From Parcubacteria bacterium RAAC4_OD1_1 (lineage in GTDB: Bacteria > Patescibacteriota > Minisyncoccia > Phycocordibacterales > UBA9973): 64,000 nucleotides of DNA. Each line of letters opens with the position of its first letter. The stretch's first letter is position 1. The DNA lies in assembly GCA_000505065.1 (NCBI GenBank), contig AWSN01000001.1, positions 196,567-260,566 of the forward strand, written 5' to 3'. Shown here piece by piece: positions 3,198 through 53,155 of this stretch. The notes under the pieces are model-generated. The model searched no databases. It was given only the letters and a program-made list of their open reading frames with translations, and was not told the origin of the DNA. Made by a program: the position numbers and the translations under genes.

Positions 3198-3300
3198 TTT
3201 AGCAAATACCTCCCTATCATTTTTTGATAAGGGGGTATTTTTGAAAATTAAAAATATTATTTTAATACAAAAATCCTTTTTTTAAAAGGAGAATTTATTT

Positions 3301-3328
3301 GCTCCGAACTTGGGACGATGTTGGAACC
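3301..3328 (+). repeat. Hairpin repeat R2 (degenerate copy)
   Basis: GCTCCGAACTTGGGACGATGTTGGAACC matches the R-family consensus with 5 mismatches that disrupt the stem. Confidence 0.6.
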
Positions 3329-3816: not shown

Positions 3817-3851
3817 ATAAGAAATCCCCCTCTACTAGAGGGAATTTACTG

Positions 3852-3879
3852 GCTCCCCACTTGGGACGAAGTGGGAACC
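3852..3879 (+). repeat. Hairpin repeat R3
   Basis: GCTCCCCACTTGGGACGAAGTGGGAACC, a perfect 7-bp stem. Preceded by the palindrome CCCTCTAcTAGAGGG. Confidence 0.8.
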
Positions 3880-4000
3880 TTAATGGTTAATGATAAGGAT
3901 AAAATTAAAAATTAAGGCCCAAACTTGGAATAATATTCAAAAGTTGTTTAGCAACAAAAAAAATAGTCTTGAAAGTATAAATACCATCAAGACTATATTT

Positions 4001-4858: not shown

Positions 4859-4865
4859 ATTACTG

Positions 4866-4893
4866 GCTCCCCACATGGGACGAAGTGGGAACC
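4866..4893 (+). repeat. Hairpin repeat R4
   Basis: GCTCCCCACATGGGACGAAGTGGGAACC, flanked by TACTG..CTTACTGG. Confidence 0.8.
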
Positions 4894-4970
4894 TTACTGG
4901 GAGAGTATAAATAGAAAAATCCACCTCAGTATAATGAAGGGATTTCCCTTCCACTAAAGTGGATTAATTT

Positions 4971-5572: not shown

Positions 5573-5585
5573 TTTGTCAATATCT

Positions 5586-5613
5586 GCTCCCCACATGGGA
5601 CGAAGTGGGAACC
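5586..5613 (+). repeat. Hairpin repeat R5
   Basis: GCTCCCCACATGGGACGAAGTGGGAACC, identical to R4. Confidence 0.8.
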
Positions 5614-5640
5614 TTAATAAAGGATTATAAATGATGTATA

Positions 5641-38004: not shown

Positions 38005-39057
38005 TTATATATAATCCTGCATTGTTAGGCAATGTATCGCTCCACCGCCTATTATTAATTGAGAACAATCAATGCCAATTACTTTATGTTTTTTAAATAA
38101 TGATTGGATTATCTTCATAGCTTTTTTGTCGTTTGGGTCATTAAAAACAGACATTAAAATTACAGAATTTCCAATATAAAAATTAGCATAAGACACTGGG
38201 GCCTTCTCTCCATTTTTATAATTCATATGAGGCATTGGAAGTTTGACTAATTTAAATTTTTTACCTTTTTCATTAGTGGCTTTTTTAAACCTATTATAAT
38301 TTTCTTTCAAAATATTATAATTTTCATCTTTTTTATTATTTTCATAGGCACAGACGATAGTATTTGAGTTCACAAATCGAGCTATTTCATCTATATGCCC
38401 ATCTGTATGATCATTTGTAAGTCCATCTTTGAGCCAAATTATATTTTCAGCCCCGAGATACGCCTTTAAATAAATCTCTGTACGACTTCGATCTAAATCA
38501 GGATTCCTATTTGGATTCAAAAGGCACTGTTCTGTAGTCATAATTGTTCCCTTACCATTTGATTCTACCGCTCCACCTTCTAAAATTATTTCGGGCTTAA
38601 AAACCTCATATTTAGATTTATCTAAAATATCATTGAAAACCTTATCGTCTTTTAATAAATCCGCAAAAAATGGATCATCACCCTTACCATAAGCATTATA
38701 ATTCCATTTTACAAAAGCCAATTTATCATTTTTTTTATTAAACAAAGTTATAGGAGCATAATCCCTTACCCAAACATCTGCATAATCAGGTTTTATATAA
38801 AAAGTAATATTTTTTATATTGATTCCATAATTGATAAACAATTTTGAAATTCTCTCTTTTTCAAATTCACTTAAGATAATTAATTTTATTTTTTCACTTA
38901 CTTCTATTTTTTTTATTATCTCACAATAAGTATCTTCAATTTCACTTAAAATATTAGGGAAAGTAATATCTCCATATGGCCAAGCAAGCCAAACAGCTGA
39001 ATGCTTTTCCCATTCTGCTGGCATATAGTATCCTAGTTCTTTTGGAATTATAATCAT
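38005..39057 (-). CDS. aguA: Agmatine deiminase
   Basis: PAD_porph family. MPAEWEKHSAVWLAWPY N-terminus and GGGAIHCLTMQ catalytic-Cys C-terminus. Confidence 0.85.
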   Translation of the reverse strand: MIIIPKELGYYMPAEWEKHSAVWLAWPYGDITFPNILSEIEDTYCEIIKKIEVSEKIKLIILSEFEKERISKLFINYGINIKNITFYIKPDYADVWVRDYAPITLFNKKNDKLAFVKWNYNAYGKGDDPFFADLLKDDKVFNDILDKSKYEVFKPEIILEGGAVESNGKGTIMTTEQCLLNPNRNPDLDRSRTEIYLKAYLGAENIIWLKDGLTNDHTDGHIDEIARFVNSNTIVCAYENNKKDENYNILKENYNRFKKATNEKGKKFKLVKLPMPHMNYKNGEKAPVSYANFYIGNSVILMSVFNDPNDKKAMKIIQSLFKKHKVIGIDCSQLIIGGGAIHCLTMQDYI

Positions 39058-39073
39058 ATTGTTCTAAAGGTGG

Positions 39074-39157
39074 AACAAATTATTTTATGAAAAAATGTCT
39101 GGCACTGGCTCCCGCCCCCCTCGTCCGAGAACTTTTTCAGAGAATTTAATTTGTGTA
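39074..39157 (-). repeat. MITE-like TIR element, copy A (in the 5' leader of aguA)
   Basis: Terminal inverted repeats AACAAATTATTTTATGAAAAAATGTC ... GACTTTTTCAGAGAATTTAATTTGTGT. Core GGCACTGGCTCCCGCCCCCCTCGTCC. Ends ~17 nt before the aguA ATG. Confidence 0.7.
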
Positions 39158-39172
39158 ACTTTTTTATATTAT

Positions 39173-40036
39173 CTATTTTATCTTATCTATTATTTTTTTA
39201 TAAGTATCAGGTCTTCGATTTCTCATAAATCCCCAATCTTCGGAGATAATATCATTCATGGATAAATCCAGTGTTTGTATTATTATCTCATCTTTTTTAG
39301 AATTAGCTCTTTTGAGAACTTTACCAAAAGCATCTGTCACAAAAGATTGCCCCCAGAAATTTAAATTACCTTCTTTACCTACTCTATTTACAGCGATAAC
39401 AGGAAGACTATTAGCAATAGAATGCCCTCTCATCACTGTTTCCCATGCATCATGCCAATCTCCATCTTTTGGTTTGTTCCCTATAATATTACCTATTGCG
39501 GTAGGATAAAATATCATTTCTGTGCCTGAAAGTTTAGAAACTCTAGCTGCTTCAGGAAACCATTGATCAAAACAGATAAGTACAGTATAAGATACATCTT
39601 TGTGTTTATATAAACTATACCCATTATCCCCTTCGGCAAAATAATCCTTTTCATAAAAGCTTGGATCATGAGGTATGTGTATTTTCCTATAAGACTTTCC
39701 AATTTCTCCTTTTTCATTCAAAACTACAACCGTATTAAAATATTTTCCTGCTTTAGTTTTTTCATAAATTGGTAGAATTATAGAGCAACCATATTTTTTA
39801 GAAATTACAGAAAATGCATTTGTAGATTCCCCAGGAATAGTCTCTAAATAATCTTTTATATCCACACCTTTTTCTCTAGGAAAATACGGGGTCTTATAAA
39901 GCTCTTGCAAGCAAATAATCTCTGCTCCCTTTTTAGCGGCAGTTTCTACCATCTTTAAAGTCTTTTCTAAATTTGATTTCAAATTATTAGAAACTGAACT
40001 TTGTATTAACCCAACTTTTATTAATTTTTTTGACAT
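39173..40036 (-). CDS. aguB: N-carbamoylputrescine amidohydrolase (CN-hydrolase family)
   Basis: Nitrilase-superfamily fold. Context with aguA. 287 aa. Confidence 0.8.
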   Translation of the reverse strand: MSKKLIKVGLIQSSVSNNLKSNLEKTLKMVETAAKKGAEIICLQELYKTPYFPREKGVDIKDYLETIPGESTNAFSVISKKYGCSIILPIYEKTKAGKYFNTVVVLNEKGEIGKSYRKIHIPHDPSFYEKDYFAEGDNGYSLYKHKDVSYTVLICFDQWFPEAARVSKLSGTEMIFYPTAIGNIIGNKPKDGDWHDAWETVMRGHSIANSLPVIAVNRVGKEGNLNFWGQSFVTDAFGKVLKRANSKKDEIIIQTLDLSMNDIISEDWGFMRNRRPDTYKKIIDKIK

Positions 40037-40055
40037 ATTGTTTCCAAAAGCGAAA

Positions 40056-40137
40056 TAAATTATTTTATGAAAAAATGTCTGGCACCGGCTCCCGTCCCCT
40101 AAATCCGAGGACTTTTTTCAGAATATAATTTGTGAAG
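40056..40137 (-). repeat. MITE-like TIR element, copy B (in the 5' leader of aguB)
   Basis: Same element, ~85% identical to copy A. Ends ~19 nt before the aguB ATG. Confidence 0.7.
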
Positions 40138-40146
40138 CTTTTTGTT

Positions 40147-41349
40147 TTACGACAACCTATTTTTAAAATCTTTATAATTAAACCTTTTTACAATTTTAAT
40201 CTTTTTATCTTTACCCATTATAGCAATATTTGGAAGGTTTATACCATTAAATGTATTATTCTTCACCATTGTATAAATAGCCATATTCATAAATACAACC
40301 CTGTCTCCTATTTTAAGAGGATTTTTAAAAGCATACTCACCTATAACATCACCAGTAAGGCAAGATGGCCCTACGAGCCTATAAACATTCTCATTATCTT
40401 CACTTGGGAGCTCAGCTCCCAAGATGGTTGGAAGATATGGCATCTCTATCACATCTGGCATATGGCAAGTAGGAGAAATATCCAAAACTGCAATATTTTT
40501 ACCATTTCTAAAGATATCTATCACGCTTCCCACCAAGACGCCAGCATTGAGTGCCACAGCCTCTCCAGGCTCAAGATACACCTCTAGGTGTGGATACCTA
40601 ACCTTAAAATCTTTAATAATCTTTTTAAGTAAATCTAAATCATAATCCTCTCTTGTGATATGATGCCCACCACCAAAATTTACCCATTTCATTTTTGCAA
40701 AAAATTTACCAAATTTTTCCTCAAAGACTTTAAGAGATCTTTCAAGTGCGTCAGCATTAAGCTCGCAAAGATTATGAAAATGAAGTCCTTCTATGCCATC
40801 TAAATTATCTTCCTCAAAATTTGCTCTTGTAACTCCAAATTGAGAATTAGGTCGTGATGGGTCATACATCTCAATCTCTGATTCACTATGTTCCAAGTTC
40901 ACACGGATACCACAAGAAACCCGCTTCTTAGATTTTTCAACAATTTTTTGAAATTTATTCCATTGTGAAAATGAATTAAAAACAAGATGATCAGAATATT
41001 TTATATAATCTTTTATGTTTTCTTCTGTATAAGAAGGAGAAAATGTGTGAACTTCCTTTTTAAATTCTTCATACCCTAGACGTGCTTCATTTACCGAGCT
41101 TGCTTCACTACCAGAAAGATACTTGCGAACCAAAGGAAAAGTAGAAAACATAGAAAAACCTTTCATAGCAAGAAGTATCTTGCAACCTGTTTCTTTTTGT
41201 ACTTCATTTAGAATCTTTAAATTCTTTTCAGTATGTGGCAAAGAAACTACATAGGTTGGTGTATCTTTTAACTTACTTAATTCTTTTTCACTCCAACCTT
41301 CTTCGTTTATCCAAGGCTCAACAAACGGTTCGTTACAATTTTTTGACAT
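40147..41349 (-). CDS. nspC: Carboxynorspermidine/carboxyspermidine decarboxylase
   Basis: Fold-III PLP decarboxylase of ~400 aa with CANSDC-like N-terminus. Adjacent to the CANSDH gene. Confidence 0.75.
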   Translation of the reverse strand: MSKNCNEPFVEPWINEEGWSEKELSKLKDTPTYVVSLPHTEKNLKILNEVQKETGCKILLAMKGFSMFSTFPLVRKYLSGSEASSVNEARLGYEEFKKEVHTFSPSYTEENIKDYIKYSDHLVFNSFSQWNKFQKIVEKSKKRVSCGIRVNLEHSESEIEMYDPSRPNSQFGVTRANFEEDNLDGIEGLHFHNLCELNADALERSLKVFEEKFGKFFAKMKWVNFGGGHHITREDYDLDLLKKIIKDFKVRYPHLEVYLEPGEAVALNAGVLVGSVIDIFRNGKNIAVLDISPTCHMPDVIEMPYLPTILGAELPSEDNENVYRLVGPSCLTGDVIGEYAFKNPLKIGDRVVFMNMAIYTMVKNNTFNGINLPNIAIMGKDKKIKIVKRFNYKDFKNRLS

Positions 41350-41376
41350 AATATTTAAATATATTAACTAATAATT

Positions 41377-43092
41377 TTAATAAATTTCATTCTGGTAGCA
41401 TTTTTCACAATATATAATCTCTGGTCTCTCTGGGGCGTAAGGGGTTTCAAATTCATTATTACATCCTTCTTTCATACACTTACGATGCCAAAGCTTAAAT
41501 GGATTCCTTTGAGATAATCTTTCATAATGCCTACAATTAGGGCAATATCTAGGCAGTGCTATATTATGACGCCTTAAAAAAGATAATTCTTCTGGCATTA
41601 TTCTATAAGCAAGGGTACATTGAGTCAATTCATTCCCGTTATTAGGGCAAGATATTATTTCATTGATAATTTCATCTTTTACATCCTTTATATGATCTGG
41701 TAAATCTTCACTTTTAATAGTTACATTGTAATTTCTTTCAATTGGTTTTCTATACAAATAACCTTCTTCAGAAATAGAATTCTTACTTTTAGGATAATAT
41801 TCTTGAGCTATGGTTTCATTGTAAGCAAATGGAGATAATTCGGGTGGAAAAAATTCACCATATTTATATACTCTACCTTTATTATCTATATATGGCATAT
41901 CTGACATATGGTCTATTATTTTGGGAATTAACTTCTCATATTCTTCTTTGGTGTATTGTTTGTTCAAGATACAATATTCACCCTTTCTAATTCCAATGCA
42001 ACCAAAAAGATTTTTTGAATTGTAACACATATAAGTATAATTTGTATCTATACTTCCATGATTTAAAACACAAAATAGATTATTAAAAGCCTTCAATCCA
42101 GAATCAACCCCTTCATACATTAAAGAAGTTCCTACTCCAAATCCATACATATCATAACTATCTTTAGCGTCGAAACCATGAATTAAATATTTTGAATCTT
42201 CTACAAGCCCATATATATCAAAACAATTTTTAATATTTTTAGAATTCAAAATAGCATCACCAACACAATCCACTGACTTTATAATCCCAGCATATTTATT
42301 TGGATAATTCAAAATAAAATTTTTATATTTATTTTTAAATTCATTCAATATCTTATAACTACCAAAATCTAGTTCCTTTTTTATTTTTTCATATTCTTCT
42401 TTTAAATATTGTTCATTTAATATACAAAATTTTTTATTTCTTAAATTTACACAACCAATACAATCTTGACAATTAATACATTCTTTAAGAAAAATAGAAT
42501 TTATTGATTGATCTGCACCAAAAGAAAAGAAAGTCTTATAAGATGAATCACAAAAAGAATCTTCATAACATTCTTCACATTTCTGAATTTTATATGTATC
42601 AAAACAATTTTTCAAACTAGAGGCACCAAGAGAATACATAGTATCTTCTGCTAAATAAGATGCGTAAACTAAATAGCAATTTTTTAAGTCTAAAGCATGA
42701 TTTACATAAGGTGAATTTATGCAATTATTATTACCTAAATTTTGAAGTGGTACTTTTGATATTAACTCTTTGAATTGCTCAAAAAATGGTTTAGAGAAAT
42801 CATATTCTTTTCCGTAATCTTTTGGATCCCATTTATCACTCCACCATATATCACGATCATAAACTTTAACATTAGCCTTTGGGTGAAACATAGTAATCAT
42901 ATTATTGCCACCAAAATCACAAATTCTCCTAAAAAGAGCTCTTTCATTTCTCCAAACCATTCTTCTTACCACCCTACACTCCGGGCAAAATGTCGGTGGA
43001 GAGACTTTTATTTTTTCATAAAATACAAAATCTTCCGGCTCAATAATAAAGTCATTTTTACAATTCTGACATTTTTTAATCTCATTTTGCAT
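41377..43092 (-). CDS. Cysteine-rich repeat protein of unknown family (571 aa) embedded in the polyamine operon
   Basis: N-terminal zinc-ribbon CQNC..x24..CPEC. Internal ~120-aa duplicated modules ending C(I/F)LN(E/K)QY(L/T)KEEYEK(I/L). C-terminal CPNC..C..GC..YCEKC. Paralog at 63034..64000. Confidence 0.6.
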   Translation of the reverse strand: MQNEIKKCQNCKNDFIIEPEDFVFYEKIKVSPPTFCPECRVVRRMVWRNERALFRRICDFGGNNMITMFHPKANVKVYDRDIWWSDKWDPKDYGKEYDFSKPFFEQFKELISKVPLQNLGNNNCINSPYVNHALDLKNCYLVYASYLAEDTMYSLGASSLKNCFDTYKIQKCEECYEDSFCDSSYKTFFSFGADQSINSIFLKECINCQDCIGCVNLRNKKFCILNEQYLKEEYEKIKKELDFGSYKILNEFKNKYKNFILNYPNKYAGIIKSVDCVGDAILNSKNIKNCFDIYGLVEDSKYLIHGFDAKDSYDMYGFGVGTSLMYEGVDSGLKAFNNLFCVLNHGSIDTNYTYMCYNSKNLFGCIGIRKGEYCILNKQYTKEEYEKLIPKIIDHMSDMPYIDNKGRVYKYGEFFPPELSPFAYNETIAQEYYPKSKNSISEEGYLYRKPIERNYNVTIKSEDLPDHIKDVKDEIINEIISCPNNGNELTQCTLAYRIMPEELSFLRRHNIALPRYCPNCRHYERLSQRNPFKLWHRKCMKEGCNNEFETPYAPERPEIIYCEKCYQNEIY

Positions 43093-43122
43093 TTTATTTT
43101 TATTTAGAAACTAAAATCTTTC

Positions 43123-44373
43123 TTAGTAATTCTTTTTTAATTCTTTTGGAATATCTTTTAGATTTTTGATTATTGTTTTGAGTCCTACTTTTTCCATTTC
43201 TTCTATAAACACTTTTGAATCAAGAGACTTATCTTCTGTGTTTTTAACTCCGACTCCTCCCCATTTACCTTCGAGGACTAATTTAGCTACAGTTACAGTC
43301 GGTATGGCTGTGGTATACCCTATGGCATTTCCGTTTGTTTCTTTGTATGCTTCATGGTGATCACAAACATTATAAATATATACATATTTATTCTTCTTAT
43401 TTTTCTTTCCAGCGATTATATTACCAATATTTGTCTTACCAACATATCCACTATTGAAATCTTCACCTTTTGGAAGTATTGCTTTTAAGAATTTAACTGG
43501 CACCACTTCTTTGCCATCATAATTTATTGGGTCAATTCTAGTTAAGCCGACATTATAAAGCACACGAAGATAAGTAAGATAATTCTTTGAGAATGTCATC
43601 CAAAAACGAATTCTCTTCAATCCTTTAATATGAGTAGGGATAGTTTCAAGTTCTTCGTGATACATTAGATAAGGAGTAAATTTACCAGCTTCTGGAAAAT
43701 TAAATTCAAAATAAGGAGCATCTTCATCAATAAGCTTACCCTTCTCTAGCCATTTACCATCTTTCCAATACTTAATTGGTAAAATAAGTTCACGTAGATT
43801 TATCTCTGGGTCAAAGTTTGGAGCAAATTTAATCTTTTCATCTTTTGATCCACCATTACAATCAAGTATGTCTATGGTATCTATCTGATCAAAAATATAA
43901 TCTCTTGCATAAGCAGAATAGATATTTGAAACACCTGGATCAAACCCAGCTCCTAAAATAGCAAGCAAACCTTTTTTCTTAAATGCTTCATTTTTAGCTA
44001 ATTGTTTCTCATAAGAGAATCCATAATGCTCTGGGTGCTCATAGCAAGCTGTATCTATATACCTTACCCCATATTCTAAACAAGCATCCATAACTACAAG
44101 ATTGTCATAAGGACTCCCCCAATTTACCACCAAATCAGGGCGTACCTCATTTAAAATATTTAGAAAATTTTTACCTGTACCCACATCTGTGATATGTATT
44201 TTTAGGTCTACTTTACCCTTAGACTTTTTCTTTACAGAATCTCTCACAGATTCGCACTTCTTCAAAGTCCTACCTACAACGTGAATCTCTCCAAAAACCT
44301 TTGGATATTGAGCCATCTTATGAAGTCCAACACTTCCTACATTTCCACATCCTATAACTAAAATTTTATTCAT
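43123..44373 (-). CDS. Carboxynorspermidine dehydrogenase/synthase (saccharopine dehydrogenase-like)
   Basis: MNKILVIGCGNVGSVGLHKMAQ Rossmann N-terminus. 416 aa, CANSDH family. Confidence 0.75.
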   Translation of the reverse strand: MNKILVIGCGNVGSVGLHKMAQYPKVFGEIHVVGRTLKKCESVRDSVKKKSKGKVDLKIHITDVGTGKNFLNILNEVRPDLVVNWGSPYDNLVVMDACLEYGVRYIDTACYEHPEHYGFSYEKQLAKNEAFKKKGLLAILGAGFDPGVSNIYSAYARDYIFDQIDTIDILDCNGGSKDEKIKFAPNFDPEINLRELILPIKYWKDGKWLEKGKLIDEDAPYFEFNFPEAGKFTPYLMYHEELETIPTHIKGLKRIRFWMTFSKNYLTYLRVLYNVGLTRIDPINYDGKEVVPVKFLKAILPKGEDFNSGYVGKTNIGNIIAGKKNKKNKYVYIYNVCDHHEAYKETNGNAIGYTTAIPTVTVAKLVLEGKWGGVGVKNTEDKSLDSKVFIEEMEKVGLKTIIKNLKDIPKELKKNY

Positions 44374-44519
44374 TTTATTTAAAGCATAATTAAAATAATA
44401 ACCTTTATATTTTACTACAAACCACTCAAAATAAAAAGCCTTGATTTTTGGTGTAAATACTATAAAATTAAAGAGTTTATAGTTAATACATCCACCAATT
44501 TTAAAAGGTGGTAAATAAA

Positions 44520-45857
44520 ATGTCTAAAACAATAATCGTCAATAAATTTGGTGGAGGAATTCTAAAGAAAGATTTTATTCCCCTAATATCAAAAAGATTA
44601 AAAGAACAACTTAAAAATGGTACGAGGCCCATTGCTGTTCTTTCTGCTATGCCAGGAGTCACAGATGAACTTCTTGCTTTTGTGGCAATAATTAGAGAAA
44701 ATAATACTAAAGAAAATGTAGAATCTCATATAGAGAACATAAAAAAGAAACATTTCGATATAATAGAATCTATCGATATTGATAAAAATCAAATCACTTA
44801 TTTAAAAAATGATATTCTTAATTCTTTAAACAAACTAAAGGATGACTTAAATAAAAACAAAAAATTTGATAATAAATTAGAAGATAAAATAGTTTCTTAT
44901 GGTGAGAGACTTTCTACTATAATAATGAGCTATTACTTCAAAAAAACAATTCCTGAAGTAGAGACATTGCTTGCCGAAGACATTCCTATAATTACAGATG
45001 ATAATTTCAAAAATGCTAATATAAATTATGAAGTATCTAAAAAGAATCTAATAGAAAAAATAAAAAATACAAAAGGGCTCGTTGTGATATCTGGATTCAC
45101 TGGTAAAACTAAAAACGGAGAGATCACTACACTCGGTCGTGGTGGGACAGATACGACAGCGTGCTTTGTGGGGTCTGTACTCAATGCATCTAAGGTAGTT
45201 CTATGGAAAGATGTAGGTGGAGTACTCTCTGCTGACCCTAGAATTATAAAAGATGCTAAAACTATACCTTTTATAGATTATTTTGAAGCAGAAGAAGCGG
45301 GTAAGATAATACACGACAAAGCTATACAATATATAAAAATAAATGAGATCCCAGTAGAAGTTTGCTCAATAATAAACCCTAAACAAAAAACAAAAATAGG
45401 AAAATCATCCAAAAGAACTTTTGGAGCTAAACTTGTAAGTATTAAAAAAGATTTAAATTTTATTTTAATTACAGATGAAAATAAAAAACTTAACGACTTA
45501 ACGCTTTTAGTATCTCAGATATTCAACAAATACAAACTAGAAATAACTTTAATAAGTAATTCCAAATATAGTCTTCAAATAATTTCAGATAATAAAAATG
45601 GAAATTTAGAAAAAGCATGTTTAGAGATAAAAGAAAAAGTGGAAGAAATAAATGTAACCAAAGCTGTGATGATCTTTGCTATAGGAATGTTTGAAGCTAA
45701 AGATGTAAGTACTTTTAATGATATAATACTAAAACAAAATGCAGATTTATTAATAAGTGCTTTCTATTATGAAGACTGTAGAAGGATAGAAGCTATAATA
45801 AATACAAGTGATACAAATAAAGTCGTAAAAGCAGTTTATAAAAAATTTATTAAATAA
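44520..45857 (+). CDS. lysC: Aspartate kinase
   Basis: VNKFGGGIL amino-acid-kinase motif plus C-terminal ACT-like region. AAGGTGG Shine-Dalgarno 8 nt upstream of ATG 44520. The ORF-track start at 44508 is GTG. Confidence 0.75.
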   Translation: MSKTIIVNKFGGGILKKDFIPLISKRLKEQLKNGTRPIAVLSAMPGVTDELLAFVAIIRENNTKENVESHIENIKKKHFDIIESIDIDKNQITYLKNDILNSLNKLKDDLNKNKKFDNKLEDKIVSYGERLSTIIMSYYFKKTIPEVETLLAEDIPIITDDNFKNANINYEVSKKNLIEKIKNTKGLVVISGFTGKTKNGEITTLGRGGTDTTACFVGSVLNASKVVLWKDVGGVLSADPRIIKDAKTIPFIDYFEAEEAGKIIHDKAIQYIKINEIPVEVCSIINPKQKTKIGKSSKRTFGAKLVSIKKDLNFILITDENKKLNDLTLLVSQIFNKYKLEITLISNSKYSLQIISDNKNGNLEKACLEIKEKVEEINVTKAVMIFAIGMFEAKDVSTFNDIILKQNADLLISAFYYEDCRRIEAIINTSDTNKVVKAVYKKFIK

Positions 45858-45863
45858 TTTAAA

Positions 45864-45945
45864 TATAAAAGTTACACAAATTATATTCTGAAAAAAGTCC
45901 TCAGACGAGGGGGACGGGAGCCGGTGCCAGACATTTTTTCATAAA
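45864..45945 (+). repeat. MITE-like TIR element, copy C (in the 5' leader of asd, inverted on the + strand)
   Basis: Reverse complement matches copies A/B/D. Same orientation relative to the downstream gene. Ends ~28 nt before the asd ATG. Confidence 0.7.
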
Positions 45946-45973
45946 ATAATTTGTTTCGCTTTAAAAATTAAAG

Positions 45974-47062
45974 ATGAAAAAAATTAAAGTTGGGATATTG
46001 GGTGCGACAGGAATGGTTGGGCAAAATTATATAAAACTATTAGAAAATCATCCTTGGTTTGATGTTGTGTACTTAGCTGCATCAACAAATTCTGCTGGAT
46101 TAAAATATACTGACGCTGTAAAGGGACGATGGCAGATGACTACCCCTATCCCTAAAAAAATAGAAAATATTAAAGTTGAAGATGTGTCTCAAATAGAAAA
46201 AGCAAAAGGTAAATGTAATTTTGTTTTCTCTGCATTTGAAATTAGTGATAAAAATATCGTAAAAGAAATAGAAGAAAAATATGCAGAAGCTGGCATCCCC
46301 GTAGTTTCTAACGCATCTGCAAATAGGTGGACCACCGATGTCCCTATGCTTATTCCTGAGATAAATGCCTCTCATACAGACATAATAACCACCCAAAAGA
46401 AGAATCATGGGTGGAAAGATGGATTCATTGCTGTAAAGCCTAATTGTAGCTTACAGAGCTATTTAACCCCTATCTATGCTCTAAATAAAGCTGGATTCCC
46501 TATCAAAAGGATATTTATAACAACCTTACAAGCAGTTTCCGGAGCCGGTTATCCTGGAGTACCAAGCCTAGATATGATAGATAATGTAGTTCCTTTTATA
46601 GGAGGAGAAGAAGAAAAAACAGAAAATGAACCACTTAAAATTCTAGGGGAAATTAAAAATGGTAAATTTGAAAAAAATAAAGAATTAAAAATTTCAGCTC
46701 AATGCATGAGAGTTCCCGTATCAGATGGTCATCTTGCTTGTGTTAGTATTTTATTTAAAAACAAAAAACCAACAAAAGAACAAATAATAAAAATCTGGAA
46801 TGAATTCGAGTCTGTTCCCCAAGATTTAAAATTACCATTTGCCCCAGTCCAACCAATAATATATACCGAAGAAGAAAATCGCCCTCAACCCAAAAAAGAC
46901 CGTAATAATGACAAGGCAATGGCTGTTACAGTCGGTAGGCTTCGAGAATGCAATATCTTTGATTATAAATTCGTGGCACTTTCACACAACACAGTTCGTG
47001 GAGCTGCTGGTGGTGGAATATTGAATGCTGAACTTTTGGTTAAAAAAGGATTAATAAAATAA
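45974..47062 (+). CDS. asd: Aspartate-semialdehyde dehydrogenase
   Basis: MKKIKVGILGATGMVGQ N-terminus and catalytic Cys region. 362 aa. Confidence 0.85.
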   Translation: MKKIKVGILGATGMVGQNYIKLLENHPWFDVVYLAASTNSAGLKYTDAVKGRWQMTTPIPKKIENIKVEDVSQIEKAKGKCNFVFSAFEISDKNIVKEIEEKYAEAGIPVVSNASANRWTTDVPMLIPEINASHTDIITTQKKNHGWKDGFIAVKPNCSLQSYLTPIYALNKAGFPIKRIFITTLQAVSGAGYPGVPSLDMIDNVVPFIGGEEEKTENEPLKILGEIKNGKFEKNKELKISAQCMRVPVSDGHLACVSILFKNKKPTKEQIIKIWNEFESVPQDLKLPFAPVQPIIYTEEENRPQPKKDRNNDKAMAVTVGRLRECNIFDYKFVALSHNTVRGAAGGGILNAELLVKKGLIK

Positions 47063-47752
47063 TTATCTCACTTCTAAAAAAATTTTAGGGTGATTATCAA
47101 GTATATTTGTTTTTATTTCAGGAAAAATTTCTCCTTTTTGTAATAGTCCAACAAATTCTGTTATCCTGGTTTTATAAGGGTAAACATATGCTTCAAATAA
47201 AACTCCACGGGCTTTAACTTGTACCATTAATTCTGGTAGTTCTTCTAAAATATATCTTCCAAATTTATTTATCTCATTATTATTAAATGTCCTTTTTTCT
47301 TTTGAAACCCATTCTTTTACAAAATTTTCTATATAATTTTTAAAATTAATATTTTTATCATATAAATTATATAAATATTTAACTTTCTCTTTATATTTAG
47401 AATCTGCAATATCTGACCATGTAGCATATATTATTTTTGCTTGTTCATCTTGACTAAAAGACAAACTAACCCTTTCTTTTATTTTAATAAAAAGATTCCT
47501 TCCGTACCTTATTGCAACCTCTTCTGCGTGACTATCAGACAATTTATTACGAACAGATAAATTAATCCCATGTATTGAGTCAGCAATATAAATTATTACA
47601 TACTCTTTAGTGTGCAATAATGACCATTTAACTAATTTTTCTATATTATCTATACTAAACCATTTATTACCCAAACTAATAGCTACCCCAATATTATATT
47701 TTTTGAGTTCTATATCATTTTTATGGCAACCTCTTATTTGATGTAATTCCAT
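47063..47752 (-). CDS. Cyclodipeptide synthase (CDPS) family protein
   Basis: Catalytic-Ser motif GVAISLGNKWFS (AlbC GISAGNSYFS, YvmC GISPFNSRFS). YILEELPEL (AlbC YVLAELPLF, catalytic Y/E). AYVYP..TRITEFVGLL (AlbC CYHIDTPITAFL). 229 aa. Confidence 0.6.
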   Translation of the reverse strand: MELHQIRGCHKNDIELKKYNIGVAISLGNKWFSIDNIEKLVKWSLLHTKEYVIIYIADSIHGINLSVRNKLSDSHAEEVAIRYGRNLFIKIKERVSLSFSQDEQAKIIYATWSDIADSKYKEKVKYLYNLYDKNINFKNYIENFVKEWVSKEKRTFNNNEINKFGRYILEELPELMVQVKARGVLFEAYVYPYKTRITEFVGLLQKGEIFPEIKTNILDNHPKIFLEVR

Positions 47753-47780
47753 AAATGTATTTTAATATAATTTTCTGTAA

Positions 47781-49157
47781 CTACCAACCAAATTCTTTAC
47801 CTACGTCTTCAGGAGATTCTCGTTTTCGTGCTACAACTATATGTCCATTTTCAGCAATTAATTTTAATGGAGAAGAAAGCATGCAATGATGTGATGCTAA
47901 AGCATCTTGATAAGCTCCCGTATCAAAAAATGCGACATAAAGAGTATCGTTGGGATCATAATTATAATCTGGTAAGACAACTGTATCATTAACTCCTGTG
48001 TAAATATCATCTGAATCACACGAAGAACCTGATATCCAAATATCATTTAATTTATTGTCAAATTTATTATTAACAGGAGCAACAAACCATTTTTGATTTA
48101 TACCCCAAACATCAGGTAAATCATTCATCAAGCTTCCATCTATTACATACCATTTTTTTGCTCCAACTTTTTTATTATTTATTATCTTAGTATCAATAAC
48201 TTTAAAAATTGTTATTTGAGCAGGAGCTACCATATACTTTCCCCATTCACAAATAAGATTTGGATGAGAAATTCCCCTCTTTTCTGATTCTTTTTTAAGA
48301 AGTTCAAAAAGTTTTTCTAATATTTTTTCAACAGAATATTTTTTATTTCTTTCAAAAGGAATAGGCATACCACCTCCAATATCTAAAGTATCTAGTGATG
48401 GATTTGTTTCTTTTAATTTAAAATATACATTGAGAGCATATTTGGTGGTTTCAACAAGATCAGATAATTTTTCAATTTTTCCAATTCTATAATGTAAAAC
48501 TTTTAAATTTCTAAAAGATGACATTTTAAGAAGTTCATTTCTGGAAAAACCAAATCTATCTATTTGTTTATTCCAATTTATTTTTGATTTTACTGGTATA
48601 TCAAGTCTAATTCCAACATCGTATTTGGAATTCTGAAAAGTTTTAAGCTCACTAGGACCCTCTATAATAGGTACAACTTTAAGTCCTCTGTGTTGAAGTT
48701 CATCAATAAGATTTATATATCTATCTGTCTTAGGTCCATTACATAAAATACGCATCTTTTCGTTAAAAGATTGCTGTTCTAGCATTTTTTTAACAATATA
48801 AAGTTCATTATAGGATGAAGTTTCAATATTTGCTCCTTCTCCCACCATAGCAAGTACTACTTCTTTTGTTTGACTTGCTTTCATGGGGTAGTGATAAAAA
48901 AACTTCCCCTGATATTTTAATTTTTTAATTAATGAATCAGATAAATCAAGTAGATCTTCAACTCTTTCCTCGATAATATAAGGAAAAAGAATTTCAAGTG
49001 ATGTCCCGAATTTTTCTGCTAGATATTTTATATTATAAACATTATTACCTTCCTTTGCGATAAGATCCCCATCTTTATTGTAATCGAAATATTGTGTATT
49101 AAAATCCTTTATACCAAGCTTCCAAAGTTTCTTAGAAGCAATTGAGCGTTTGGTCAT
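47781..49157 (-). CDS. Fold-III PLP-dependent decarboxylase, biosynthetic arginine decarboxylase (SpeA)-like
   Basis: YHYPMKASQTKEVVLAMVGEGANIETSSYNEL resembles SpeA YPIKVNQHRRVIESL..GLEAGSKAEL. LEILFPYIIEERV resembles LLIRFPQILQHRL. Would supply agmatine to aguA. A DAP-decarboxylase (lysA) role is not excluded. Confidence 0.65.
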   Translation of the reverse strand: MTKRSIASKKLWKLGIKDFNTQYFDYNKDGDLIAKEGNNVYNIKYLAEKFGTSLEILFPYIIEERVEDLLDLSDSLIKKLKYQGKFFYHYPMKASQTKEVVLAMVGEGANIETSSYNELYIVKKMLEQQSFNEKMRILCNGPKTDRYINLIDELQHRGLKVVPIIEGPSELKTFQNSKYDVGIRLDIPVKSKINWNKQIDRFGFSRNELLKMSSFRNLKVLHYRIGKIEKLSDLVETTKYALNVYFKLKETNPSLDTLDIGGGMPIPFERNKKYSVEKILEKLFELLKKESEKRGISHPNLICEWGKYMVAPAQITIFKVIDTKIINNKKVGAKKWYVIDGSLMNDLPDVWGINQKWFVAPVNNKFDNKLNDIWISGSSCDSDDIYTGVNDTVVLPDYNYDPNDTLYVAFFDTGAYQDALASHHCMLSSPLKLIAENGHIVVARKRESPEDVGKEFGW

Positions 49158-49246
49158 CTCATTACATAAGGCATCTTACACTTACCTTTAATAAATAATA
49201 TTAATAAAATATATTATACCAAAACTGAAAAATTTGTAAAGATAAA

Positions 49247-50332
49247 CTATAAACCTTCTTCTTTTAATTTTTCTATTAATTCTTTATTCTTTTTTGAAAG
49301 TTTAGGCATAGTAATATTTACTTTTACTATAATATCTCCTCTTCCATAATTATTTGGAACACCCTTACCTCGTACTCTTAATAATTCTCCATTATTTATT
49401 CCTTCTGGAATTTTTATTTCCAAATTTCCACCATCTAAAAGTTTAAGCTTATAAGTAGAACCTAAAAGTGCATCAGTAAGCTTGATTTTTATTTCTGTAA
49501 TTAGATTATCTCCATCTCTTTTATATATATCATTTGATTTTACTTTCAATCTAATAAATAAATCTCCAAATCTTCCACCTTGCACTCCATCTCCCTCTCC
49601 ATTCAATTTTAATCTTTGCCCATCTTCGACTCCACTAGGAATATTTATAGATATAACATCATCACTTTTGTTAATTCCTATTCCTTTACAATTAGAACAT
49701 TTTTCTTCAGGGATTTTTCCAGATCCGCTACATTCTCCACAAGCAGATACAGATTCAAAATTTCCAAGTATTGTTCTTTTAACTTCTCTTATTTTTCCAG
49801 CACCACCACATTTTTTACAATTATTTAATTTAGTACCCTTTTTTGCTCCAGTACCCTCACAAACTTTACAAGTTGAATTTCTATTAATGCGAATATCTTT
49901 TGAAACTCCAAAAATAGATTCCTCAAATGTTAAATCAAGAAGAACTTCTAGATCTCGCCCTTTTTTCTGGCCTCCTCTAGAACGACCACCCATTCCACCT
50001 CCAAAGAAGTCACCAAAAATATCTCCTAAATCTCCCATGTCAAATTCTACTCCACCATTCGCATTTCTGAAATCAAAACCACCAAAACCTCCAAACCCAG
50101 ACGTTCCAGGATTAAACCCACCCATATCTGCACTACCAAATTGATCATAGTTTGATCTTTTCTTATCATCAGAAAGGATCTGGTAAGCTTCATTTACTTC
50201 CTTGAACTTTGTATCATCACCCTTGTTTTTATCAGGATGGTAAGTGTGTGCAAGCTTATGAAAAGCTTTTTTAATTTCATCTTTTGATGCACCTTTATTT
50301 ACTCCCAAAATTTTATAATAGTCTTTGGACAT
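49247..50332 (-). CDS. dnaJ: Chaperone DnaJ
   Basis: J-domain with HPD, G/F-rich region, four CxxCxGxG repeats. Confidence 0.9.
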   Translation of the reverse strand: MSKDYYKILGVNKGASKDEIKKAFHKLAHTYHPDKNKGDDTKFKEVNEAYQILSDDKKRSNYDQFGSADMGGFNPGTSGFGGFGGFDFRNANGGVEFDMGDLGDIFGDFFGGGMGGRSRGGQKKGRDLEVLLDLTFEESIFGVSKDIRINRNSTCKVCEGTGAKKGTKLNNCKKCGGAGKIREVKRTILGNFESVSACGECSGSGKIPEEKCSNCKGIGINKSDDVISINIPSGVEDGQRLKLNGEGDGVQGGRFGDLFIRLKVKSNDIYKRDGDNLITEIKIKLTDALLGSTYKLKLLDGGNLEIKIPEGINNGELLRVRGKGVPNNYGRGDIIVKVNITMPKLSKKNKELIEKLKEEGL

Positions 50333-50361
50333 AATTTTTATATAATACCATAGTTTAATAA

Positions 50362-50476
50362 AAATTTCTGAAATAATTCTTATCGAGGGGGCGGTTGAGG
50401 CTGACGAGCCGAAACTTCAGCATAAATTTCAGTAGAAATTTTGCGGACCCGAGAGAAGAAGTTATTTCAGAAATTT
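50362..50476 (-). repeat. TIR-flanked structured element between dnaK and dnaJ
   Basis: 15-bp perfect terminal inverted repeats AAATTTCTGAAATAA / TTATTTCAGAAATTT. GC-richer core with nested hairpin AAATTTC-AGTA-GAAATTT and a GGCTCGTCAGCC..CCGCCCCCTCG segment resembling the MITE core. Confidence 0.55.
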
Positions 50477-50496
50477 TATCTATTATTTCTATTTTA

Positions 50497-52386
50497 TTAT
50501 TTACCCTCTTCTTTTACTTCTGCATCTTTTATTTCTGGTTCTTGTTCCTCTGGTGTAGGATTATTTCCTTCGGGTTGTGCGTTTCCTGCTTTACTCATAG
50601 CTTCACCTATTTTAGAAATTTCAGACGAAAGTTCTTCTGTAGATTTCTTAATAGCTTCGATATCATTTCCTTCTTTTACAGTTTTAAGAGAAGTTATCTT
50701 ACCTTCTACTTCTGTTTTTAAAGAAGAATCTATTTTATCTCCATAATCTTTCAAGGATTTTTCTGCAGTAAAGATCATCATATCGGCAGTATTTTTAATA
50801 TCTGCAATTTCTTTTTTCTTTGCATCTTCTTCAGCATGAGCTTCTGCATCTTCTTTCATTTTCTTTATATCTTGATCTGTAAGACCAGAGGAAGCTTCAA
50901 TACGAATAGATTGAACTTTTCCTGAAGCTTTATCCATAGCTTTAACATTAAGTATTCCATTTGCATCAACATCAAAAGAAACTTCAACTTGTGGTATACC
51001 ACGTGGAGCAGGAGGAATACCGTCTAAAATAAACCTTCCGAGAGATTTATTGTCTGTTGCCATTGGGCGCTCACCTTGAACAATATGAATTTCTACACTT
51101 GTTTGATTGTCAGCAGCAGTTGAAAAAACTTGTGATTTAGAAGTAGGAATTGTAGTATTTCTCTCTACAAGCTTTGTAGCAACACCTCCTAAAGTTTCAA
51201 TACCCAAAGATAATGGAATAACATCAAGAAGTAAAACATCACGGACATCCCCTTGAAGAACTCCCCCTTGTACAGCAGCACCAAGCGCTACAACTTCGTC
51301 TGGATTGATTGAACGATTTGGCTCTTTACCAAAAAGTTTTTTCACTTCTTCTACTATTTTTGGCATTCTTGTTTGACCTCCAACCATTATTATTTCATTA
51401 ATATCATCCATTTTAAAAGGACTTGCTTCCATTGCACGCTTTGTAATTTCTATTGAACGATTTATATATTCTTCAGCTAATGACTCTAGGGTTGCACGGG
51501 ACATCTTTATAAGTAAATGCTGAGGACCTTCTGCACCAGATGTTATAAATGGAATATTTACTTCTGTTTCCATTGTAGTTGAAAGTTCAATTTTTGCTTT
51601 TTCAGCTGCTTCATCAAGTCTTTGAAGGGCAAGAGGATCTTTGGTGACATCTATTCCTGATTGTTTCTTAAATTCATCTGCTAACCAATGAATTATTTTT
51701 TGATCAATATCACGACCCCCCATATGAGAATCTCCATCTGTTGACTTCACTTCAATGACATCATCTGAAACTTCAAGAACAGAAACATCAAATGTTCCAC
51801 CTCCAAAATCAAAAACTACAATCTTTTCATTTTTCTTATTATTAAACCCATAAGCAAGAGCAGCGGCGGTTGGTTCGTTTATAATTCTTTTAACATCAAG
51901 CCCAGCGATCATTCCTGCATCTTTTGTAGCTTTTCTTTGTGCATCATTAAAATAAGCAGGAACAGTAATTATCGCTTCTGTTATTTTTTCTCCAAGTTTT
52001 GCTTCGACATCGGCTTTAATTTTAGAAAGTATCATTGCAGAAATTTCTTCTGGACGAAACCATTTTTCACCAATATTTACTTCTGCCCCAGAATCTTTAC
52101 CTTTTTGAATTTTAAATGGGGCAGTCTTTGAAGTTTTCTGTATTTCAGGATCTTCAAACATATGACCCATAAATCTTTTAATACCATAAATTGTATTTTG
52201 TGGATTTGTCACAGACTGACGCTTTGCAAGAAGACCCACTAACCTATCACCATTTTTAGAAATAGCGACAATAGATGGAGTAGTTCTTCCACCTTCTATG
52301 TTCTCTATAATCTTTGGTTGACCACCTTCAATGATAGCAACCGCACTGTTTGTTGTACCCAAATCTATACCTATTATTTTTGACAT
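50497..52386 (-). CDS. dnaK: Chaperone DnaK (Hsp70)
   Basis: [18 protein letters not shown], and full Hsp70 architecture. 629 aa. Confidence 0.95.
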
Positions 52387-52400
52387 ATATTTTGTAGCAA

Positions 52401-52483
52401 AACAAATTATTTTATGAAAAAATGTCTGGCACTGGCTCCCGTCCCCTATAGCCCCTAGACTTTTTTCAGAATATAATTTGTGA
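52401..52483 (-). repeat. MITE-like TIR element, copy D (in the dnaK 5' UTR)
   Basis: Same element. Lies between the dnaK promoter (52533..52561) and the start codon, ending ~15 nt before the ATG. Confidence 0.7.
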
Positions 52484-52532
52484 AGCTAATTATTAAATTA
52501 ATAATGTTTTTATAATAAAATTATACAAACTA

Positions 52533-52561
52533 ATTATATACTAACGAAGTTATTTTGACAA
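52533..52561 (-). promoter_or_regulatory. Sigma70-like promoter for dnaK
   Basis: Minus strand reads TTGTCA-N17-TATAAT. The -35 overlaps the left arm of the palindromic operator. Confidence 0.55.
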
Positions 52562-52586
52562 GTATTTAGTGGTCACTAAATACTTG
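52559..52586. promoter_or_regulatory. Perfect palindromic operator (13 bp + GT + 13 bp) between divergent dnaK and regulator promoters
   Basis: CAAGTATTTAGTG-GT-CACTAAATACTTG. Overlaps the dnaK -35 and abuts the regulator -35. Confidence 0.6.
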
Positions 52587-52615
52587 TTGAATATTATATT
52601 TATATATGATATACT
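52587..52615 (+). promoter_or_regulatory. Sigma70-like promoter for the PaaX-like regulator gene
   Basis: TTGAAT-N17-TATACT, 9 nt before the ATG at 52625. Confidence 0.5.
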
Positions 52616-52624
52616 GTCAATAGT

Positions 52625-53155
52625 ATGAAAAAACGTGATTTTTCAAGGAAAATTATAAAAATGCTTTCTGAGAAGCCAGCTATTTCTCTATCTGAAATAG
52701 AAGAAAAGATACTAAATGATAAGTCTACAAAATATGCTTTAAATCGCTCTATAAAGGGTCTAAAAGACTCAGGGCTGATCGAAAACATAGATTCTGGTCA
52801 AAGTAAGTATGCAAAGCTTACAAAGGAAGGTAAGAAAAAGGCCCATAGTATTAAGCTTGAATGTGAGAATGCTGTAATAAGTAATACTTGGGATGGATTT
52901 TGGAGAATTATAATTTTAGATGTAGAAGAAGACAGAAAAAGTGAAAGAGAAGCAATTAGGTATCTACTTAAAAAAGCAGGATTTGTATCTGTAAAAAATT
53001 CTGTTTGGATTTCTATGTATCCTTTCGAATACCTGTTTACAAATATAAAAAATGATTTAGATCTTACAACAGAACTTATGATAATAGTCACAGATAAGAT
53101 CGACAAAAAAACAGAAAAAGAATTTTTATCTCTCTGTTTAACTAAAACAGAGTGA
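52625..53155 (+). CDS. PaaX-like winged-HTH transcriptional regulator (candidate dnaK-operon repressor)
   Basis: N-terminal wHTH. C-terminal WDGFWRIIILDVEEDRKSEREAIRYLLKKAGFVSVKNSVWISMYP matches the PaaX_C pattern WDG.W..v..D.pE..R..R..LR..L...GF..L.NSVWiSP. 176 aa. Confidence 0.6.
   Translation: MKKRDFSRKIIKMLSEKPAISLSEIEEKILNDKSTKYALNRSIKGLKDSGLIENIDSGQSKYAKLTKEGKKKAHSIKLECENAVISNTWDGFWRIIILDVEEDRKSEREAIRYLLKKAGFVSVKNSVWISMYPFEYLFTNIKNDLDLTTELMIIVTDKIDKKTEKEFLSLCLTKTE

Follow-up and report, generated by a model that had tools for sequence, protein, structure and literature searches.

Copies of the element in the window

The window, the whole stretch of 64,000 nucleotides analysed here (contig AWSN01000001.1, positions 196,567 to 260,566), comes from Parcubacteria bacterium RAAC4_OD1_1, the Candidatus Nomurabacteria organism RAAC4_OD1 (henceforth RAAC4) of Rifle aquifer sediment, whose genome has 693,528 bp and 31% GC (PMC3812714). 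The proteins of asd and aguB in the window are identical to those of RAAC4. The window holds four copies (A to D) of a palindromic element of ~103 nt, three of them between co-directional genes and the fourth between the promoter and the start codon of dnaK. The paper on the RAAC4 genome makes no mention of the element, and short repeats were unresolvable in its assembly (PMC3812714). The copies and the genes downstream of them, the latter named like the other flanking genes by Pfam, are:

38005-39057, minus strand: aguA (agmatine deiminase-type)
39061..39164, minus strand: copy A, between the aguB stop (39173) and the aguA start (39057); 90.8 bits with the covariance model described below
39173-40036, minus strand: aguB (CN-hydrolase)
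40041..40143, minus strand: copy B, between the stop of an nspC-like gene (40147) and the aguB start (40036); 111.7 bits
45866..45968, plus strand: copy C, between the aspartate kinase stop (45857) and the asd start (45974); 113.9 bits
45974-47062, plus strand: asd
50497-52386, minus strand: dnaK
52388..52491, minus strand: copy D, in the dnaK 5' untranslated region (UTR), between the promoter and the ATG at 52386; 91.2 bits

The copies in the window were set by an exact core pattern, GGCACYGGCTCCCGYCCCC, by reading of the sequence and by alignment in gene orientation. The core occurs exactly four times in the window (at 39101, 40081 and 52428 on the plus strand and at 45910 on the minus strand) and not once in 100 shuffles. 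A covariance model with a length of 103 nt, for which 14 copies served as input and which was run on the window and on loci fetched from other sources (L numbers below), scores the four copies at 91-114 bits, the rest of the window at 19 bits or less on the element's own strand, and the reverse strands of the four copies at 22-31 bits. The first-pass annotation of this DNA had described four copies of an ~85-nt element resembling a miniature inverted-repeat transposable element (MITE), with terminal inverted repeats of 22-25 bp, a GC-rich core and a variable segment of 10-15 nt. The core pattern and the model both return these four copies, and the arms, the core and the variable segment are all seen by reading and alignment; the length has to be revised, since the inner palindrome extends into an outer stem and the paired unit spans ~103 nt. 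The orientation common to all four copies relative to the downstream gene, with asd on the opposite strand included, also stands, but for copies A, B and D the sequence had been written out as the antisense strand. In gene orientation the four copies give the consensus CACAAATTATATTCTGAAAAAAGTCCTCGGACGAGGGGGACGGGAGCCRGTGCCAGACATTTTTTCATAAAATAATTTGTT, with the ATG 16-20 nt beyond the conserved 3' arm. Copies A, B and C begin 3-8 nt past the stop of the upstream co-directional gene (aguB, the nspC-like decarboxylase gene and the aspartate kinase gene, respectively). Three of the four copies thus adjoin the upstream stop as well, and fill intercistronic spacers rather than merely being placed at start codons.

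Sites, orientation and transcription context

Scanning species-representative genomes with the exact pattern revealed six further copies, upstream of rplT, a murD-like gene, a copper ATPase gene, argS, thrS and asd (genes identified by reading their N-termini). These copies belong to two metagenome-assembled genomes (MAGs) of Nomurabacteria and to MAG CAZUAA01, which is labelled Saccharibacteria, yet encodes an AguB 97% identical to that of RAAC4; CAZUAA01, to which locus L026 belongs, carries at least five copies. A scan of metagenomes added four distinct copies, one upstream of the enolase gene, one after a csoR-like gene and two orthologous ones between tatD and rpsF (L017 and L019), the remaining metagenome matches being chance occurrences in GC-rich contigs or a tRNA 3' end. 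As the copies found by these scans outside the window were selected for an exact core match, conservation of the core can be read only from the window copies and from the core-diverged copies, missed by the patterns, that the covariance model found in the fetched loci. Copies at the asd locus are also present in L026/L008 and L028. Among viral contigs, none of 29 pattern matches fits the covariance model. Rfam 15 holds no match to the element; the window yields one tRNA only, and at E values up to 10 only spurious miRNA and rRNA matches appear.

In all, the element occupies ~12 distinct sites (aguA, aguB, asd, dnaK, rplT, murD, csoR-copA, csoR-DUF305-like, argS, thrS, eno and tatD-rpsF), and it is sense to the flanking gene or genes at every one, an outcome with a chance of ~2^-12 if both orientations were equally likely. 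The rule of a common orientation, first noticed in the window, therefore holds in several genomes. The companion claim, that copies always lie just 5' of a start codon, is true of all four copies in the window but not of the tatD-rpsF copies, which abut the tatD stop at ~230 nt from the rpsF start and are followed by a separate terminator and promoter. As far as the sequences can be read, the settings of the element are intercistronic gaps, 5' UTRs behind a regulated promoter or a T-box leader, and the 3' flank of a gene.

How the host starts translation bears on this orientation rule. Hexamers of the form TAnnnT end 4-9 nt before the start of 45% of window genes, compared with 19% at random positions, and carry a TGn extension at 16% of genes (1.2% at random positions); Shine-Dalgarno-like motifs precede 6% of genes (10% at random positions). 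With TAnnnT boxes common and Shine-Dalgarno motifs rare, the host appears to be mostly leaderless or Shine-Dalgarno-independent; both a Shine-Dalgarno motif and a nearby -10 box are missing from the element-bearing genes themselves. Across the 18 copies used for structure and covariation, the antisense strand holds at least one ATG in 18 of 18, and the sense strand has none in 14 of 18. On the antisense strand, moreover, a hairpin of -5.2 kcal/mol stands 2 nt ahead of a run of six U (U6); on the sense strand no hairpin adjoins U6. A Shine-Dalgarno-independent host would be harmed by upstream AUGs and by a terminator-like signal, so that selection against antisense copies can explain at least part of the orientation bias, which may thus be partly a filter that requires no positive function.

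Two copies lie behind regulated leaders. At dnaK the relevant features are:

52533..52561, minus strand: dnaK promoter TTGTCA-17-TATAAT, with 11/12 consensus matches, upstream of copy D
52554..52591, no strand assigned: palindrome AAGTATTTAGTGACCACTAAATACTT over the dnaK -35 box, candidate operator for the divergent PaaX_M-domain regulator gene (52625-53155)

The promoter, noted in the first-pass annotation, is present and is kept in L030, L031, L067 and L068, although the UTR downstream of it differs there. The half-sites of the candidate operator vary among relatives (TAGCGGTCGCTA in L030/L031, TTGCGGTCACTA in L067), and only the L030/L031 form is fully palindromic. With a conserved promoter and operator upstream of it, copy D belongs to the dnaK 5' UTR, as had been proposed. 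The divergent PaaX_M-domain gene encodes a winged-helix protein, and its arrangement with the 26-bp palindrome AAGTATTTAGTGACCACTAAATACTT is kept in L030 (3486-4243), L031 (3462-4211), L067 and L068; gene and palindrome are a candidate heat-shock repressor/operator pair distinct from HrcA/CIRCE. At thrS of CAZUAA01, the element lies between a T-box-like leader with its terminator and the ATG. This leader has a GGGUGGAACCGCG box, an ACC specifier (a threonine codon) and a terminator, and its Rfam T-box match (29 bits, E 1e-4) is sub-threshold. The same short leader with the ACC specifier is seen at L007 880-1020 (minus strand) upstream of thrS in a candidate phyla radiation (CPR) genome, and its 29 bits, against an Rfam gathering threshold of 93 bits, suggest a reduced T-box variant. 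At both genes the regulation from upstream would be undone by a strong promoter inside the element, or by a terminator; the copies at thrS and dnaK must be read through.

This requirement weighs on the idea of a portable promoter, in which the 3' arm (TTCATA as -35, with TAAAAT or the following CGCTTTAAAA as -10) would drive the downstream gene from a start of its own near the ATG, in a host favouring leaderless mRNAs. The strict sense orientation, the 13-26 nt between arm and ATG at most sites, the AT-rich -10-like hexamers that follow the 3' arm in many copies and the habit of host promoters to sit right at most genes all speak for it, and the ends of Correia elements are known to create promoters (PMC2649163). 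A promoter scan, however, found a single weak site at any copy (9/12, at 45858-45887), which lies at the 5' end of copy C and not in the 3' arm, and counts in the copy regions do not exceed those of shuffles. A sigma-70 cassette with conserved -35 and -10 boxes, 16-18 nt apart and at a fixed place, is likewise absent: TAAAAT of the 3' arm becomes GAAAAAG in the variant-arm copies, the hexamers after CGC are not conserved (TTTGGA, TTTAGA, TACAAA and others), the distance to the ATG varies by 13 nt, and the TGn extension of host promoters is missing. An internal promoter would moreover bypass the repressor-controlled promoter of dnaK and the T-box leader of thrS, the tatD-rpsF copies have a separate terminator and promoter after them, and the covariation of two stems described below would go unexplained. 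We therefore regard a portable promoter as very improbable. Intrinsic terminators were also sought, and none was found at any copy, the strongest sense hairpin ending 18 nt before U6.

Several other identities were considered and rejected. A curated RNA family is not indicated, since Rfam at gathering and at permissive thresholds, applied to the element as well as to the T-box region and the alternative dnaK UTRs, returned only the sub-threshold T-box. A sigma-54 promoter on the antisense strand (TGGCAC) has its -12 GC out of register and would face away from the gene. The motif GAGCCGGTGCCA is a tRNA acceptor end in five metagenome matches, but the element lacks the complementary 5' strand and the window tRNA-Leu is unrelated, so that the likeness to a tRNA 3' end was judged to be chance. 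An antisense small peptide (MSGTGSRPP...) is not coding, as stop positions differ among copies; the frame of this mini-open reading frame is the one read through in the tsaD gene discussed below. The ends GCTTCAC and GTTTCGC do not fit the RYYYAAC ... GTTRRRY of an integron attC site and are not complementary to each other, and the flanking genes are housekeeping genes. A polyamine riboswitch was considered because three of the four window copies, together with a dnaK-dnaJ-speA operon, touch polyamine synthesis; sites elsewhere lie before rplT, murD, argS, thrS, eno and copA, conservation is higher in the arms than in the core, and a switchable expression platform is lacking.

The polyamine cluster itself (38005-49157) looks complete, with a speA-like decarboxylase gene (47781-49157), aguA, aguB, the nspC-like decarboxylase gene (40147-41349), aspartate kinase and asd, and with a saccharopine-dehydrogenase-type gene (43123-44373) that resembles carboxyspermidine dehydrogenase. 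L030 and L031 have a deoxyhypusine-synthase-like gene in place of the aspartate kinase/asd pair. Between asd and the speA-like gene lies a cyclodipeptide-synthase-like open reading frame (47063-47752, minus strand; Pfam CDPS, E 1e-7), unexpected in a 0.69-Mb genome.

Paired arms, constraint and empty sites

The consensus fold by RNAalifold consists of an outer stem (P0; AAAGC/GCTTT, variable), a 3x3 internal loop, an AU-rich stem (P1) of ~22 bp in which A.A and C.U mismatches and a bulged A sit at constant positions, and a GC-rich, asymmetric tip, where a small hairpin with a variable loop is followed by the 17 nt GACGGGAGCCRGUGCCA. In copy C these parts are:

45867..45872, plus strand: 5' strand of the outer stem P0 (AAAAGT), pairing with 45958-45963
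45876..45899, plus strand: 5' arm ACAAATTATATTCTGAAAAAAGTC, AU-rich stem P1 plus GUC
45900..45912, plus strand: apical hairpin (CUC, a variable 7-nt loop, GGG), the variable segment of the first-pass annotation
45913..45929, plus strand: conserved unpaired 3'-side segment GACGGGAGCCGGUGCCA, invariant in pattern-found copies, which had to contain it
45930..45954, plus strand: 3' arm GACATTTTTTCATAAAATAATTTGT, pairing with the 5' arm
45958..45963, plus strand: 3' strand of the outer stem P0 (GCTTTA), with 10 nt between it and the ATG

Pairing between the ends is borne out by covariation. Over the 22-25 nt of the arms and the outer stem, 92.1% of cells are paired across the 18 copies, and sliding the partners by one to three columns lowers this to 58.5% or less; 12 pairs are changed on both sides, compared with 5.5±1.4 in shuffles, none of 500 of which reaches 12. 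All six pairs of P0 have such changes, and copies at the same locus differ in a compensating manner (ATGC/GCAT versus AAAG/CTTT). The helix of the 5' arm is 95.7% paired and has six pairs changed on both sides, and the GUC/GAC pairing shows a double change from G-C to A-U in the aguA copy of L028. The tatD-rpsF copies have wholly different arms (GCAAGCTTTATCAATAAAAAAG.../...TTTTTTTTGAAAAAGTTTGC) with pairing retained, and in a diverged copy inside tsaD of L004 the A and U runs of the arms are swapped, again with pairing retained. The apical loop varies (GGACGA, GGAUUUA, AGACGA, GGACUUA); its hairpin keeps a U.G pair in 14 of the 18 copies and has three G.U pairs in copy A. The fold of copy D has a z-score of -3.6 to -3.8. 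Thus the long hairpin that the first-pass annotation had raised as an option for the palindromic ends is supported at the level of sequence covariation.

Pairing is not all that is kept. In copies that were not selected by pattern, the arms are near-invariant as sequence, more so than the core: the segment GACGGGAGCCGGUGCCA varies there (GGGAACC, GGGATC), while CGGTGCCAGA stays fixed. The near-invariance of both arms and of part of the core, together with the fixed positions of the A.A and C.U mismatches and the bulged A, would suit a protein-binding platform, that is, a regulon-like cis site whose arms and CGGUGCCAGA are recognised on DNA (by a nucleoid protein, a regulatory protein or a recombinase) or on RNA (by a processing or translation factor). 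The genes concerned are also mostly housekeeping or highly expressed ones (dnaK, eno, rplT, aminoacyl-tRNA synthetases, the polyamine pathway). They share no common pathway, however, relatives dispense with the element, the variant-arm and tsaD copies keep the pairing but not the arm sequence, a double-stranded DNA site would not need covariation of the outer stem, and no candidate protein was found; all told, such a platform seems rather improbable.

Conservation of the element outlasts that of its surroundings. Between RAAC4 and L028, identity at fourfold sites is 0.42-0.46 (saturated) and the surrounding spacer is unalignable, whereas three same-locus pairs of elements are 84-86% identical; within the RAAC4 group, element identity is 83-91% at a fourfold identity of 0.59-0.78. 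Divergence of the element levels off at ~15% regardless of host distance. The asd copies of L026 and L028 have a common locus-specific outer stem (ATGC/GCAT) at an asd fourfold identity of 0.41, and the aguA copies of RAAC4 and L026 have a common derived indel, TCTCTGAAAAAG; both point to vertical descent and argue against repeated fresh insertion. Because the element is conserved beyond neutral sequence (83-91% where fourfold sites saturate), the view in the first-pass annotation that the copies are not plain neutral MITE scatter holds.

Relatives also offer empty sites, as the search for presence/absence differences at aguA, aguB and thrS revealed. The aguA site is filled in RAAC4, L065, L026 and L028, and the aguB site in L028. 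In L065, a Logan contig whose AguB is 97% identical to that of the window, the aguA site is filled and the aguB site is empty, the nspC-like gene and aguB overlapping by GTGA. In L066, whose AguB is 94% identical to that of L028, the aguA site is empty and aguB and aguA overlap by ATGA; the more distant L030-L032 likewise have aguB and aguA adjacent or overlapping with an empty aguA site. At thrS of L062 there is no T-box and no element, and TGCTATTAT is followed by 7 nt and then the ATG. From these empty sites with overlapping genes it follows that the element is dispensable. Filled alleles have the stop (TAA) on the left and the ATG on the right, and the empty sites read TCGTGAAAAAG and AAAATGATC; this layout fits a duplication of 3-4 bp of the RTGA overlap, with diverged junctions and element ends that are not sharp. 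Consistent 5'-TA-3' termini were not found, the ends being AAAGCTTCAC... and ...CGCTTTAAAA; terminal TA is also absent in RPE and some other families (PMC2229807).

The diverged copy of L004 (38.9 bits) lies in frame inside tsaD, antisense to the gene, and adds residues 241-276 relative to solved TsaD structures. Within this gene (L004 2840-2975) the 13-mer CTCCCTCGTCCGA occurs twice, 45 nt apart, once in the inserted palindrome and once as the native LPRPM in a different frame; target-site homology and local duplication are possibilities.

Other repeats take the place of the element in some genomes. The dnaK 5' UTRs of L030 (4125-4215), L031 (4100-4185) and L068 hold a different long hairpin of like architecture (CTTCRCAGAAATATTAAAATTTT, a GC-rich core, AAAAATTTTAAYATYTCTG), with z-scores of -4.8 and -5.5 and compensating changes in the core stem between L030 and L068. 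A third family of ~85 nt, the 'GCAAGGCATTT' family (AAATGCAC..TTTTCTGCTGAAAA..CTCGGCYC..GCCTGYGCAAGGCATTT..AAAGACTATTTTA), lies before aguB in L066 (62-145) and L026 (9890-9990) and in the dnaK 5' UTR of L067 (about 1260-1380, minus strand), and has no Rfam match. The window itself carries another repeat, CTGGCTCCCCACWTGGGACGAAGTGGGAACC, at 2294-2352, 3846-3904, 4860-4918 and 5580-5638 (and, degenerate, near 3290-3320), with a hairpin CCCACWT-GGGACG-AAGTGGG, among small open reading frames without Pfam match and a gene for an APH-type kinase. As ACTGGCTCCC and a GC hairpin containing GGACGA are common to this repeat and to the antisense core of the main element, it may be a core-only relative of the latter.

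A multi-copy palindrome with filled and empty sites and a diverged relative in frame in tsaD bears out the MITE-like label of the first-pass annotation. The element is shorter than 200 bp, non-coding and multi-copy, with inverted repeats, a long stem-loop and filled and empty sites, the traits by which bacterial MITEs are recognised (PMC2229807). It is very probably a MITE-like, dispensable and duplicative palindromic repeat. Whether it is no more than that is a separate matter. As a purely selfish, neutral MITE, its orientation bias would be a survival filter and its conservation the outcome of recent repeated insertion from an active master into few sites. Such a reading would account for sites that are filled in some relatives and empty, with overlapping genes, in others, for the in-frame relative in tsaD, for the strand asymmetry in ATG, for the three unrelated families at the same sites (the dnaK 5' UTR and the region upstream of aguB) in different genomes, and for a star-like identity matrix that does not place copies of one locus closer together than the rest. 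It does not sit well with the aguA indel and the asd outer stem, which imply long vertical inheritance without decay, with the divergence plateau of ~15% at any host divergence, or with compensating changes between same-locus copies; nor was a transposase partner seen among 66 loci. On balance we consider a purely selfish element unlikely.

Interpretation and comparison with known repeat families

We favour, at a probability of roughly 0.5, the reading that the element is an undescribed MITE-like family of ~103 nt in Candidatus Nomurabacteria (CPR/Patescibacteria), present in sense orientation only in transcribed spacers, whose retained copies act as co-transcribed RNA hairpins. Copies would arrive by a transposition-like insertion that duplicates the 3-4 bp of a stop/start overlap, so that both genes survive. 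Only sense copies would persist, as an antisense transcript would bring upstream AUGs and a hairpin next to U6. Retained copies would be co-transcribed, and the RNA hairpin, neither a promoter nor a terminator, would uncouple the neighbouring cistrons and might act in the processing or the stability of the mRNA, as the target of a double-strand RNase or by blocking exonucleases, in the manner described for Correia/NEMIS, ERIC and REP sequences. From position, constraint, covariation and the analogy with these families (PMC2649163, PMC2229807) we infer both the role in processing or stability and the uncoupling.

A number of observations weigh against this reading. The pattern search required an intact core, so that pattern-found copies are uninformative on core conservation, and conservation of the arms as sequence, not only as pairs, suggests a sequence-specific partner, be it a protein or a transposase. 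The long stems contain G.U and A.C in nearly equal number (9 versus 8), which does not separate an RNA from a DNA hairpin and makes such counting uninformative as a discriminator for these stems; the small apical hairpin alone favours the sense strand, and action at the RNA level is something that we infer. The filled and empty alleles could reflect repeated precise loss or repeated insertion at the same site, and in the latter case the apparent conservation would partly be recent insertion. Junctions are too diverged to prove a target-site duplication, and among the 66 loci no transposase has matching ends (CACAAATTATATTCTGAAAAAAG and its complement), the arm sequence occurring only in element copies. 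Finally, fairly close relatives have empty alleles, so that the element is not needed for the expression of aguA or aguB.

A bolder version would make the element and the two replacement families a domesticated module for non-first genes in leaderless, Shine-Dalgarno-independent CPR bacteria. The hairpin and a conserved AU-rich tail, ending 4-16 nt before the AUG, would direct an endonucleolytic cut or position the ribosome, and would thereby provide an internal cistron, or a gene that follows a long regulated leader, with a short, AUG-free, translatable 5' end. If true, this would be a bacterial counterpart of organelle intercistronic processing signals; we hold it to be distinctly improbable.

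Under the favoured reading of co-transcribed hairpins, an RNA-level role, if true, would provide a route to the handling of operon-internal genes without Shine-Dalgarno sites. CPR genomes are usually regarded as streamlined; they do carry mobile palindromic repeats, which separate genes that once overlapped and were translationally coupled, and which are afterwards retained under constraint in a single orientation. To our knowledge CPR organisms are not yet genetically manipulable. In practice, the element is a marker for strain-level comparison, a cause of gene-calling errors (spurious small open reading frames, an inflated TsaD) and a possible contributor to assembly breaks.

Our literature search returned no interspersed repeat family described for CPR/Patescibacteria genomes. 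The element is thus a new family of a known kind, in a lineage without one described in the literature searched.

Among the known families close to it are the Correia/NEMIS elements of Neisseria, which are also non-coding, ~100-150 bp long, with inverted repeats of ~25 bp and a conserved core, located near genes and co-transcribed as a long hairpin. That hairpin binds RNase III and is cleaved or protected, altering the expression of neighbouring genes (PMC2649163, PMC2229807). Correia elements differ in their TA target duplications, IHF-binding site, promoters generated by the ends, occurrence in both orientations and hundreds of copies, whereas the element has few copies per genome (at least 4-5), lacks TA ends and a convincing promoter, is strictly sense in orientation and does not resemble them in sequence. 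ERIC/IRU and YPAL sequences of enterobacteria and Yersinia are likewise imperfect palindromes of transcribed intergenic regions; their sites are filled in some relatives and empty in others, and RNA hairpins have been proposed to act on the stability of their flanking transcripts (PMC2229807). ERIC sequences, by contrast, occur in both orientations and have no sequence similarity to the element. We know of no report that makes same-locus conservation past synonymous saturation a defining trait of ERIC. The RPE palindromes of Rickettsia (105-146 bp) also inhabit a reduced genome and insert in frame in conserved protein genes (PMC2229807), as does the tsaD relative, which adds ~30 residues here; the main family, however, is intergenic and tied to the direction of transcription, and its single in-frame case has different arms.

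REP/BIME and REPIN-RAYT sequences are hairpin-forming extragenic repeats that also occur in operon spacers. REPs persist over long times with a Y1 transposase and lie typically at gene 3' ends and between convergent genes. Systems of the REP/RAYT type exist in Nomurabacteria: L031 has a REPIN-like doublet (20420-20465), and IS200-like (Y1, RAYT-like) genes lie between inverted REP-like hairpins with the loop AGCCTTGCT in L028 (6130-6910) and L031 (2050-2770). The hairpins that flank these Y1 genes (CCCCTAAGCCTTGCTTAGGGG and CCAGCCTTGCTGG) are unrelated to the element, and no Y1 gene was seen in the window. In operon spacers REP sequences can stabilise the upstream mRNA, an example being the REP of E. 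coli malE-malF.

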